Positions 27,503 through 28,091 of a stretch of 64,000 bases of DNA are shown here, piece by piece. The stretch lies in the IMG/VR virus record IMGVR_UViG_3300045988_152430. The stretch is one strand, 5' to 3'. Position numbers and translations under genes: made by a program. The notes beneath the pieces were generated by a model that saw only the letters and a list, made by a program, of their open reading frames with translations, had not been told where the DNA came from and did no database searches. Each line of letters starts with the position of its first letter. Position 1 is the first letter of the stretch. The stretch is from a virus (taxonomy: Duplodnaviria; Heunggongvirae; Uroviricota; Caudoviricetes).

Positions 27503-27925
27503 ATGTCATTCTTTTCTACGTTAAAAACAGCTTTGTCTTTGAAGGAGAAACTTGCTGCTACTGGTGTTCTTGTTCTGATTTGCGCACTTGTTGGTGCTGG
27601 GTTTGCATGGGAACGTCATCAGCTAAAGCAAGCCATAGAGAAAATTGGCAGTCTTGATCAGGCTGTTAAGGAACGTGATAAGTCAATAATGGATCTTAAC
27701 CAGACCATTGAGACGATGAACAAAGCAGAGCAACATTTTCACAGCCAGGAAGTGAAAAATGAATCAGAACAAGCCAAGTATGCTGACAGGCAAATGGAAC
27801 GAAAAGCTGAAGTTCAGAAACAACTGGTTGCGGCGGGTAATGTTCGCCAGCGCATTCCTGCTGACACTCAGCGGTTGCTCCGGGAGTCGATCAGCGAATT
27901 TAACGCCGACGCCGACAAAGGTTAA
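27503..27925 (+). CDS. Rz-like inner-membrane spanin candidate (N-terminal TM helix plus periplasmic coiled coil)
   Basis: From ATG at 27503 (SD CAGGAGGAAG): MSFFSTLKTALSLKEKLAATGVLVLICALVGAGFAW then charged coiled coil; overlapped by a lipoprotein ORF in another frame. Confidence 0.45.
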   Translation: MSFFSTLKTALSLKEKLAATGVLVLICALVGAGFAWERHQLKQAIEKIGSLDQAVKERDKSIMDLNQTIETMNKAEQHFHSQEVKNESEQAKYADRQMERKAEVQKQLVAAGNVRQRIPADTQRLLRESISEFNADADKG

Positions 27926-28091
27926 CCACCCTGCCCCCAAAAGTGCATTTATGTGCAGAATGCCAGAGTTTAGCAGTGAATATTTTGATGATCTGCCAGC
28001 GTATATCCTCGATACAGAAACGATGCTGAAGGGGATTAACAGGAAGAATCGCAACGTTAATGATTACAACCGTGCTATCAGCGGTAACTAA
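27840..28091 (+). CDS. Rz1-like outer-membrane lipoprotein spanin candidate, overlapping the previous gene
   Basis: Lipobox in MFASAFLLTLSGC followed by Pro-rich TPTPTKVNHPAP; start within 27759-27840 uncertain. Confidence 0.4.
   Translation: MFASAFLLTLSGCSGSRSANLTPTPTKVNHPAPKSAFMCRMPEFSSEYFDDLPAYILDTETMLKGINRKNRNVNDYNRAISGN

Follow-up and report, generated by a model that had tools for sequence, protein, structure and literature searches.

The 64,000-nt stretch of DNA analysed here (the window) is a P1-like phage-plasmid. Its positions 27503–28091 coincide exactly with ppfA and mlp of P1, and this locus is 98–100% identical to that of P1, P7 and other punaviruses; the PpfA protein of the window is 100% identical to P1 PpfA. 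All coordinates are those of the window, and all features lie on the + strand unless stated otherwise.

ppfA (27503–27925) starts with ATG at 27503, ends with its stop codon at 27925 and is preceded by a Shine-Dalgarno sequence, AGGAGG (27492–27497). It encodes a 140-aa protein, the predicted i-spanin, with the layout of a type II inner-membrane protein. A single N-terminal transmembrane (TM) helix, LAATGVLVLICALVGAGFA, is predicted at codons 17–35 (27551–27607); these residues form the best 19-residue hydrophobic window (Kyte-Doolittle mean 2.35) and the sole hydrophobic segment. The N-terminal side of the TM helix carries a net charge of +2 (K8, K14, E15 and K16), which favours an N-in/C-out topology. 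The remaining 104 residues, of which 36% are charged, contain one Pro and no Cys. In an AlphaFold2 model (mean pLDDT 72), PpfA consists of a helix (residues 13–110), a loop (residues 111–119) and a second helix (residues 120–138). The a/d heptad is unbroken from about residue 41 to residue 79, and a crude shuffle test of this register is weakly significant, with 153 of 2000 shuffles as good. For this reason the periplasmic domain is described as helical with coiled-coil character, short of a proven coiled coil. The original prediction had read it as a long charged coiled coil; the charge and the helix stand, and the coiled coil is to be worded more cautiously. PpfA combines the two predicted features by which an i-spanin is recognized, a single N-terminal TM domain and a mainly α-helical periplasmic domain in the sequence analysis and the structural model.

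mlp (27759–28091) is read in the +1 frame and encodes a predicted o-spanin of 110 aa, a putative outer-membrane prolipoprotein. Its Shine-Dalgarno sequence, AGGAAG (27747–27752), is located inside ppfA codons and serves the ATG at 27759; a TGA at 27753 directly precedes the mlp opening. In the four relatives examined for this site, AGGAGG is followed by 9 nt and then by ATG, and the same mlp ribosome-binding site was accepted by Kongari 2018 (PMC6139136, Table S1). A lipobox, L-S-G-C, was located by a regular expression and by translation at codons 37–40 (27867–27878). Cys40 (27876–27878) is the predicted lipidated residue and is directly followed by TPTPTKVNHPAP; the residue at +2 is Ser and not Asp, so that Mlp would be sorted to the outer membrane. 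The mature protein would comprise 71 aa with 6 Pro and one Cys besides the lipidated Cys. Mlp accordingly carries the predicted marks of an o-spanin: a signal peptidase II (SPII) signal with a lipobox, no Asp at +2 and a Pro-rich mature domain. For P1 gp063, Table S1 of Kongari 2018 (PMC6139136) places the LipoP cleavage at residue 39 and flags the signal, which at 39 residues from the annotated start is abnormally long, as a 'Too long signal sequence'.

A possible alternative start is TTG at 27828–27830, codon 24 of mlp. With initiation at this codon, the signal peptide (M-RRVMFASAFLLTLSG, followed by the lipobox C) would be canonical, with 16 residues. Codon 24 is ATG in six of the seven diverged relatives and AGG in the other, and Met1 of P2 LysC aligns to it. 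No Shine-Dalgarno sequence is present in the sequence upstream of the TTG at 27828. A further in-frame ATG, at 27840, was rejected as a start because the signal would be 12 residues long without a charged n-region.

The overlap of the two genes comprises 167 nt, and mlp runs for 166 nt beyond the ppfA stop. The genes therefore adjoin as those of a two-component spanin do, in the 'overlapped' class. In the original prediction, an open reading frame from 27503 with an N-terminal TM helix and i-spanin topology was overlapped in its 3´ part by a second frame encoding a lipoprotein with lipobox LSGC and a Pro-rich stretch. This description agrees with the hydropathy maximum, the modelled helices and the signals described above; the word 'embedded', which was applied to the architecture, is incorrect, as mlp passes the ppfA stop.

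To assess conservation, diverged relatives of ppfA/mlp were fetched individually, which yielded seven independent lineages with 59–64% identity in PpfA. Across these seven and the window (eight lineages), the +1 frame of mlp is open for 110–111 codons. The seven relatives keep the L[SN][GA]C-SG pattern, the second Cys (FMCRMPE) and the Shine-Dalgarno sequence with ATG; the lipobox Cys is conserved in 8/8 lineages, as is the h-region, and the pair is full-length in every P1-like element examined. In the part of the gene that is mlp only, pN is 0.12–0.13 against a pS of 0.58–0.85 in the mlp frame (four relatives), and the two control frames show the reverse pattern. mlp is under purifying selection where it stands alone, with a dN/dS of ~0.1; in the four relatives tested, ppfA shows less synonymous change inside the overlap. 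Most gene callers leave mlp uncalled or call just a piece of 46–65 aa downstream of the lipobox, as would be expected if mlp were a chance open frame in and after ppfA that is not translated. Such a frame would not stay open over 110–111 codons in eight lineages with its start signals, h-region and both Cys conserved, nor would pN fall far below pS solely in the mlp frame over the 166 nt past ppfA; we give this explanation next to no probability.

The family searches connect both proteins with the P2 spanin. PpfA matches PHROG 89 ('Rz-like spanin') over its full length with an E-value of 5e-25; P2 LysB is itself a PHROG 89 member (E 6e-61). Mlp matches PHROG 30284 (E 6e-77) and is weakly similar to PHROG 456, the P2 LysC family (E 1.3e-5); reciprocally, P2 LysC matches PHROG 30284 with an E-value of 5e-4. 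The pairwise alignment of Mlp and P2 LysC shows 37% identity over 68 aa (E 4e-8) and spans the signal peptide, the Pro-rich segment and the C-x-MP motif. Concordant hits to the NCBIfam models fall well short of the curated cut-offs, with 18.2 bits for PpfA against LysB (TIGR03495, cut-off 92.75) and 14.9 bits for Mlp against LysC (NF038368, cut-off 27). From these comparisons we read PpfA as a remote homologue of P2 LysB and not as its equivalog. In Pfam-A, neither protein matches a spanin-related family at E ≤ 0.1: PpfA gives just weak coiled-coil-type noise, and Mlp nothing. The PpfA family alignment is shallow (Neff 1.6), and hhalign comparisons of it with P2 LysB and with lambda Rz (probability 1.6%) are not significant. 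A PDB sequence search found no relatives of the pair. A tblastn comparison of PpfA and Mlp with 50,697 phage records matched P1-like phages only, so that the lysis cassettes of other phages offer no 'guilt by association'. Searching the contigs of GTDB genomes for PpfA patterns returned only three loci, which are near-identical.

The pair belongs to a rightward cluster whose first gene is upfC (26382–26666). This gene encodes a PAAR-like protein (Pfam PAAR_motif, E 1e-5; PHROG 281, E 2.5e-30) that is 100% identical to P1 UpfC. upfB (26618–27463, with an alternative start at 26675 in other records) lies between upfC and ppfA; its product is 99.6% identical to P1 UpfB, and the sole family match is PHROG 1559, a family of unknown function. 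The other neighbours of ppfA/mlp are a Gp49-family gene and the plasmid replicon. lydA and lydB are located at 60186–60955, 32 kb from ppfA/mlp, and the 64,000-nt window contains neither lyz nor lydD. The pair thus lies outside a lysis cassette, a location that is typical of spanins but does not define them. The consensus of the C1 repressor operator, ATTGCTCTAATAAATTT, has nine matches in the window against 0.28 expected. The match at 26284–26300 on the − strand (one mismatch) is Odmt/Op68 of P1, which according to the P1 annotation overlaps the −35 of the divergent leftward promoter Pdmt; this operator belongs to the dmt promoter and not to the spanin genes.

The timing of expression was taken from published RNA-seq of P1vir (PMC8201110). 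Between 10 and 30 min, the wild-type logFC rises from 5.6 to 11.2 for ppfA and from 4.1 to 10.5 for mlp. For comparison, the 10-min logFC is 0.16–6.05 for 35 genes behind annotated late promoters and 6.6–10.0 for 16 operator-controlled early genes. The five genes upfC-upfB-ppfA-mlp-upfA show late kinetics in these data, and those of ppfA and mlp match lyz, lydA and lydB and differ from the early genes; the data come from P1 rather than from this exact element. The original prediction was right in naming a PAAR-like neighbour and in placing the pair away from the holin at 60.2 kb. It had also assigned the pair to an operator-controlled early region, which conflicts with both the identity of the operator and the late kinetics of upfC to upfA.

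Lpa-dependent late promoters of P1 consist of a 9-bp −22 box (AAGTGACTT), 4 nt and a −10 hexamer, and a position weight matrix (PWM) was built from 10 annotated P1 late promoters. Nine of these promoters score 16.9–21.1 bits and LPpmgL scores 10.3 bits. Upstream of ppfA, at 27465–27483, we find a candidate Lpa-type late promoter, AAAGGACTT-cattGATAAT (−22 box, 4 nt and −10 hexamer), which is unannotated in the P1 RefSeq record. It scores 11.0 bits and ranks 14th of 127,962 positions in the window. The candidate is sub-canonical in P1 itself: at position 4 of the −22 box, where T is invariant, it has G, and its −10 hexamer begins with G. Orthologous sites are fixed at 37–38 nt from the ppfA ATG in 8/8 lineages and score 8.3–17.8 bits; in three relatives the AAGTGACTT box is perfect. 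We propose, as a hypothesis, that this site is the late promoter of ppfA, from which transcription would start at about 27489–27491. A weaker candidate, AAATAACCTaagtTAAAAT (26331–26349), is located 51 nt upstream of upfC, with a possible transcription start at about 26355–26357; its 10.9 bits place it 15th in the window. Comparable sites of 8.7–12.1 bits occur 48–52 nt from the start in five of the seven relatives, and nothing comparable was found there in the other two. A generic sigma-70 scan showed no promoter-like site on the + strand upstream of upfC or ppfA, and a terminator scan of the + strand showed nothing resembling an intrinsic terminator in the cluster or after it. A late-promoter-like motif before ppfA would be a simple explanation for the coordination of three unlinked P1 lysis loci.

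Taken together, ppfA and mlp very probably encode the two-component spanin of the P1-like phage, of the 'overlapped' class and remotely related to P2 LysB/LysC. This assignment is already known, and the finding is correct but ordinary. The pair was reportedly catalogued as a spanin by Summer and colleagues in 2007, and was catalogued again in 2018, so that the result has little significance beyond correct annotation. Kongari 2018 (PMC6139136, Table S1) lists P1 gp064 as the i-spanin and gp063 as the o-spanin, with the class 'ovl'; the Rz/Rz1-like i-/o-spanin pair of the original prediction agrees with this entry, with the identity to P1 and with the family searches. Bednarek et al. 2022 (PMC9025707) describe the putative P1 spanin genes ppfA and mlp as a separate, unlinked operon, and cite Summer 2007 for the i-/o-spanin classification. 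In P1-like phage-plasmids, both genes rank among the 21 that are most conserved (PMC9603915).

Public annotation of the locus is inconsistent, which makes a clean description useful. The original P1 annotation is neutral ('membrane lipoprotein precursor', 'possible periplasmic function'). In the P1 RefSeq record mlp alone is named a spanin and ppfA is not, several P1-like records call a 46-aa 'Rz1' whose start is downstream of the lipobox, and mlp is absent from the annotation of the best-matching public record. The i-/o- labels of the pair are swapped in one paper.

From these features we infer how the pair would act. PpfA would be anchored in the inner membrane by its one N-terminal helix (N-in/C-out), and its other ~104 residues, mostly helical, would reach into the periplasm. 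After export, Mlp would receive its lipid on Cys40 and lose its signal peptide to signal peptidase II; with Ser at +2, the Lol system would take it to the outer membrane, where it would sit in the inner leaflet and project a 71-residue Pro-rich periplasmic part. The periplasmic parts of the two proteins would bind each other through the peptidoglycan meshwork. Once the murein has been destroyed by the holin LydA and the SAR-endolysin Lyz, whose genes lie at two further loci, the complexes would be free to move and collapse. Collapsed PpfA-Mlp complexes would fuse the inner membrane with the outer one and so take away the final barrier to release. ppfA and mlp would share late transcription with upfC, upfB and the gene downstream, probably initiated at one or more Lpa-dependent late promoters, and this would coordinate them with the unlinked lysis genes.

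Spanin phenotypes are conditional. The pair could be a real spanin that is redundant or marginal in P1, with the outer membrane broken mainly by shear or another phage factor, and could matter only in particular hosts or conditions. In a CRISPRi study, the efficiency of plating (EOP) was 1.3 and 1.2 for ppfA and 0.24 and 0.19 for mlp, and both genes were scored as non-essential for P1 plaque formation; lambda Rz was scored as essential in the same study. Spanins are reported to be dispensable for lysis in shaken laboratory cultures (PMC9025707), and the lysis set of P1 is unusually complex and partly redundant, with LydA, LydC, LydD, LydB and LydE (PMC9025707). However, CRISPRi knock-down is incomplete and plaque assays read spanin defects poorly, and a marginal function does not fit well with the strong purifying selection or with the retention of a full-length pair throughout the P1-like elements; we regard it as quite improbable. 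It is very improbable that Mlp is a lipoprotein with no part in lysis, acting in receptor masking or superinfection exclusion like Cor or Llp of other coliphages, with PpfA unrelated and the overlap incidental. The neutral wording of the original annotation, the position beside the plasmid replicon and far from any lysis gene, and the sub-threshold matches to the curated spanin families would all allow such a role. Yet the late mRNA kinetics are ill-suited to prophage-expressed exclusion, each partner independently matches its P2 LysB or LysC counterpart, the +1 overlap with a helical type II membrane protein is the defining arrangement of spanins, and PADLOC gives no defence-family match for the pair.

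A role restricted to the timing of lysis, as first described for P2 lysB/lysC, without disruption of the outer membrane, would follow two notes that are still found in the records of P2 and P1, 'nonessential; affects timing of lysis' and 'possibly involved in regulation of lysis (by homology)'. Nothing in the sequence, however, points to an interaction with the holin. The 'timing' phenotype of Rz-type mutants has reportedly been reinterpreted as delayed failure of the outer membrane (Summer 2007; Berry 2012; Rajaure 2015), and we hold a timing-only role to be extremely unlikely. An elaboration of the spanin assignment combines two in-frame Mlp starts (the ATG at 27759 and codon 24), a dedicated Lpa-type late promoter at 27465–27483 and a long form that tunes spanin activity. 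The form initiated at the ATG may carry a 23-residue basic N-terminal extension and the codon-24 form may be the canonical prolipoprotein, and export of the long Mlp could be poor, or its processing slow. The arrangement would resemble lambda S107/S105, but would act at the last lysis step. As a joint reading it is speculative, and we consider it unlikely.

As a two-component spanin, the pair most closely resembles P2 LysB/LysC, the prototype of the 'overlapped' architecture. In both systems the o-spanin is read in the +1 frame and starts within the 3´ portion of the i-spanin gene, whose stop it passes, and the sizes are similar (141 and 96 aa for LysB and LysC; 140 and 110 aa for PpfA and Mlp). 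P2 lysB/lysC differ in lying within the lysis cassette, directly after the holin gene Y, the endolysin gene K and lysA, and P2 LysC does not have the extra 23-codon basic N-terminal extension of Mlp. The predicted likeness to lambda Rz/Rz1, the spanin that has been characterised by experiment, lies in a type II inner-membrane helical protein with a short linker interrupting the helices and in a small Pro-rich outer-membrane lipoprotein read in the +1 frame; the summed periplasmic length of the P1 pair (104 + 71 = 175 residues) is about that of lambda Rz and Rz1. In contrast, Rz belongs to PHROG 13 and Rz1 to PHROG 3198, neither of which is matched by PpfA or Mlp; Rz1 is wholly embedded in Rz, whereas mlp just overlaps ppfA; and Rz/Rz1 stand at the end of the S-R-Rz lysis cassette. 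Lambda Rz has two periplasmic Cys and Rz1 has one, and Rz uses intermolecular disulfides. PpfA has no periplasmic Cys and would therefore not form intermolecular disulfides of the lambda Rz type. The T4 spanin, PseT.3/PseT.2, is a 'separated' pair whose genes do not overlap, unlike ppfA and mlp, and to which similarity in sequence would not be expected. Its genes do not adjoin the T4 holin and endolysin genes, and it provides a precedent for spanin genes that, like ppfA/mlp, are located apart from the genes for the holin and endolysin.

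The 801 bases around ppfA and mlp are 100% identical to Escherichia phage vB_EcoM-813R1 and 98–99% identical to P1, P7, RCS47, SJ46 and other punaviruses. The P1 backbone of the window is confirmed by the RepA ORF at 29261, an RdgC gene, a PAAR-like gene and three tRNAs. The gene order of P1 is upfC/upfB, ppfA and mlp, then upfA/oriR/repA, and the P1 reference record contains, at the matching place, ppfA ('possible periplasmic function') and mlp ('membrane lipoprotein precursor ... possibly involved in regulation of lysis (by homology)'), the latter renamed 'Rz-like spanin' by RefSeq. 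Public annotation of the pair is inconsistent between records: P1 RefSeq names mlp alone of the two as a spanin, a 46-aa 'Rz1' starting downstream of the lipobox is called in MH422554-type records, and ON470617 leaves mlp out. Between mlp and the upfA position lies a Gp49/Sf6-gp66-family gene (PF13876, E 1e-33; 28103-28462), which is absent from P1 itself and present in diverged P1-like elements. The upfA-like sequence (28527-28934) shares 51% identity with P1 UpfA and contains an in-frame TAA at 28677-28679; it is therefore split or a pseudogene.

ppfA extends on the + strand from the ATG at 27503 to the stop at 27925, with a Shine-Dalgarno (SD) sequence, AGGAGG, at 27492-27497. PpfA contains 140 amino acids, with a net-positive N-terminus, a sole strongly hydrophobic segment (residues 17–35; Kyte-Doolittle 2.35) and a further 104 residues that are 36% charged and include one Pro and no Cys. 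AlphaFold2, supplied with a 10-sequence alignment, predicts one long helix (residues 13–110), a loop (residues 111–119; AAGNVRQRIPA) and a second helix (residues 120–138) with a mean pLDDT of 72. A continuous a/d heptad can be seen at residues 41–79, although a crude shuffle test is only weakly significant. The N-terminal hydrophobic segment and the charged, helical remainder bear out the i-spanin-like ORF originally predicted from 27503.

mlp (27759-28091, +) occupies the +1 frame, which opens directly after the TGA at 27753 and carries AGGAAG six bases upstream of the ATG. Mlp has a basic stretch and a hydrophobic core (VMFASAFLLTL), then the lipobox LSGC (Cys40) with Ser at +2, the Pro-rich segment TPTPTKVNHPAP and a second Cys; the lipoprotein frame proposed over the 3´ part of ppfA is confirmed in the sequence. 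The two genes share 167 nt and mlp continues for 166 nt past the ppfA stop, so the pair belongs to the 'overlapped' class (Summer 2007 / Kongari 2018 nomenclature) and is not 'embedded', as its earlier title had stated.

Gene callers mostly miss mlp or call just a 46–65 aa tail, which would favor a frame that is not translated. That explanation is effectively excluded by comparison with seven P1-like elements, including those from Cronobacter, Klebsiella and Salmonella, whose PpfA shares 59–64% identity with that of the window. In all seven relatives, the +1 frame is open over 110–111 codons and the L[SN][GA]C-SG motif, the FMCRMPE Cys and the C-terminal INRKNRNVN motif are kept. In the 166 nt coding for Mlp only, four relatives give pN of 0.12–0.13 versus pS of 0.58–0.85 in the mlp frame, whereas the two control frames show the reverse pattern. 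Where the two genes overlap, nucleotide identity increases from 0.61 to 0.76–0.79 and the synonymous divergence of ppfA falls, a pattern expected because of dual coding.

With regard to the start of mlp, the four relatives whose start region was read contain AGGAGG, 9 nt and ATG, and the other three likewise have an ATG at the position of 27759. Initiation here predicts a 39-residue signal peptide that includes a 23-residue basic extension. Codon 24, which aligns with Met1 of P2 LysC, is TTG in P1 and the window, ATG in 6/7 relatives and AGG in the remaining one; it would yield a canonical 16-residue signal peptide, and no SD precedes it. A 'dual start' at both positions, considered because both are possible, has a low probability.

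The pair had also been assigned to an 'operator-controlled early region'. At 26284-26300 there is indeed a C1-operator match with one mismatch, but it corresponds to Odmt, which in the P1 record overlaps the -35 of the leftward Pdmt serving uhr-hrdC-dmt, and neither control of ppfA/mlp nor early timing holds. In the published P1vir RNA-seq (WT logFC at 10 and 30 min; PMC8201110, Table S1), upfC, upfB, ppfA, mlp and upfA reach 4.1–5.6 at 10 min and 10.5–11.2 at 30 min. The 35 genes behind annotated late promoters average 4.18 (range 0.16–6.05) and 11.05, and 16 operator-controlled early genes average 8.61 (6.6–10.0) and 11.58; uhr, hrdC and dmt, immediate neighbors belonging to the early set, show 8.6–9.4 at 10 min. 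The upfC-upfA cluster is expressed late. Across the window, the 17-bp C1 consensus (≤3 mismatches) has nine matches versus 0.28 expected (6563, 8655, 8704, 12328, 22751, 22762, 26284, 41430 and 43487), which map immunity-controlled promoters of the P1-like element; the immI region is marked by C4 antisense RNA (43207-43294) and isrK (43339-43417).

A late-promoter PWM was built from ten annotated P1 late promoters (-22 box AAGTGACTT, 4 nt, -10 hexamer). It identifies AAAGGACTTcattGATAAT at 27465-27483 (+) with 11.0 bits, rank 14 of 127,962 window positions. The orthologous site lies 37–38 nt from the ppfA ATG in 8/8 lineages, and three relatives carry a perfect AAGTGACTT box there (17.8 bits, inside the bona fide late-promoter range). 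The -10 hexamer stands as far from the ATG as it does at LPmat. A weaker match at 26331-26349 (+), 51 nt upstream of upfC, is kept in 5/7 relatives. NC_005856 annotates neither site and gives just predicted sigma-70 promoters inside upfB, and a generic + strand scan of the cluster found no sigma-70-like promoter or terminator-like site. Judged by motif and conservation, both are candidate late promoters. Further strong PWM matches are located at 40512-40530 (+) and 14074-14092 (+), with 18.4 and 15.1 bits.

The holin gene lydA (60186-60515) and lydB (60512-60955) follow the late promoter LPdar (60139-60157). tblastn found no match to lyz or lydD in the window, and lydC gave only a paralogous match to lydA. 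The spanin pair does lie away from the holin, as proposed, and the 32 kb between ppfA/mlp and lydA agree with the known three-locus layout of P1 lysis genes (PMC9025707). Just upstream of LPdar, group II intron D1-D4 segments (Rfam, 103 and 47 bits) occupy 59739-60002 (-), within a ~0.8-kb stretch (59300-60122) that is unmatched in P1-type phage records. tblastn detected neither a lydC nor a cin homologue, and the two segments are not overlapped by any ORF of ≥100 aa; the stretch resembles the remnant of an intron within lydC-cin, a region known to be variable. Elsewhere, a full-length sok antitoxin RNA (Rfam RF01794, 89.7 bits) at 39202-39376 (-) suggests a hok/sok-type addiction module. In the homologue of the putative lipoprotein gene plp (21396-21966, +), two pieces match P1 Plp (residues 1–93 at 21396-21674 and 86–125 at 21847-21966), which suggests a ~170-nt insertion, or duplication, inside the gene.

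ppfA/mlp is already known as a predicted spanin pair; our analysis adds only two corrections (overlapped, late) and, ahead of ppfA, the conserved motif that resembles a late promoter. In their Table S1, Kongari et al. 2018 (PMC6139136) classed the P1 NC_005856 pair as 'ovl'. Their i-spanin gp064, with 104 periplasmic residues and 'one [Cys] in TMD', is identical in sequence to the window PpfA, and their o-spanin gp063 ('Too long signal sequence', 'LipoP server finds cleavage site at 39th position') has the RBS found here for mlp. Bednarek et al. (PMC9025707) put both genes in a separate, unlinked operon and labelled ppfA the o-spanin and mlp the i-spanin, opposite to the assignment that the sequences indicate. 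Both genes are among the 21 most conserved in 77 P1-like phage-plasmids (PMC9603915). In genome-wide CRISPRi (PMC10695390), both were scored non-essential for plaque formation, ppfA giving EOP values of 1.3 and 1.2 and mlp values of 0.24 and 0.19; a literature search found no experimental test of their function. All the evidence fits the standard spanin model, in which the inner membrane would anchor PpfA, a lipid anchor would hold Mlp in the outer membrane, their complex would pass through the murein mesh (104 + 71 = 175 periplasmic residues), and, with the wall degraded by LydA and Lyz, such complexes would fuse both membranes. We infer this topology, lipidation, complex formation and fusion from the protein families and the work on lambda. 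The original prediction of an i-spanin/o-spanin pair is essentially correct, consistent with the 'ovl' listing and the PHROG families, and ppfA/mlp very probably is a spanin pair; our confidence is not higher mainly because of the CRISPRi result and the lack of a mutant phenotype.

PpfA matches phrog_89 'Rz-like spanin' over its full length (E 5e-25), and Mlp matches phrog_30284 and, more weakly, phrog_456. When the reference spanins were also scanned against PHROGs, P2 LysB fell into the same phrog_89 (E 6e-61) and P2 LysC into phrog_456, with a reciprocal match to phrog_30284. Mlp shares 37% identity with LysC across 68 residues, and the NCBIfam matches of PpfA and Mlp to the LysB and LysC equivalogs are concordant, although far sub-threshold. 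No spanin-related family was matched in Pfam-A, nor was hhalign significant when run against LysB or Rz as single sequences. The PHROG, alignment and NCBIfam pattern makes ppfA/mlp a distant relative of P2 LysB/LysC, whose genes have the same overlapped architecture. In contrast, lambda Rz and Rz1 belong to other PHROGs, and with respect to them ppfA/mlp is an analogue only.
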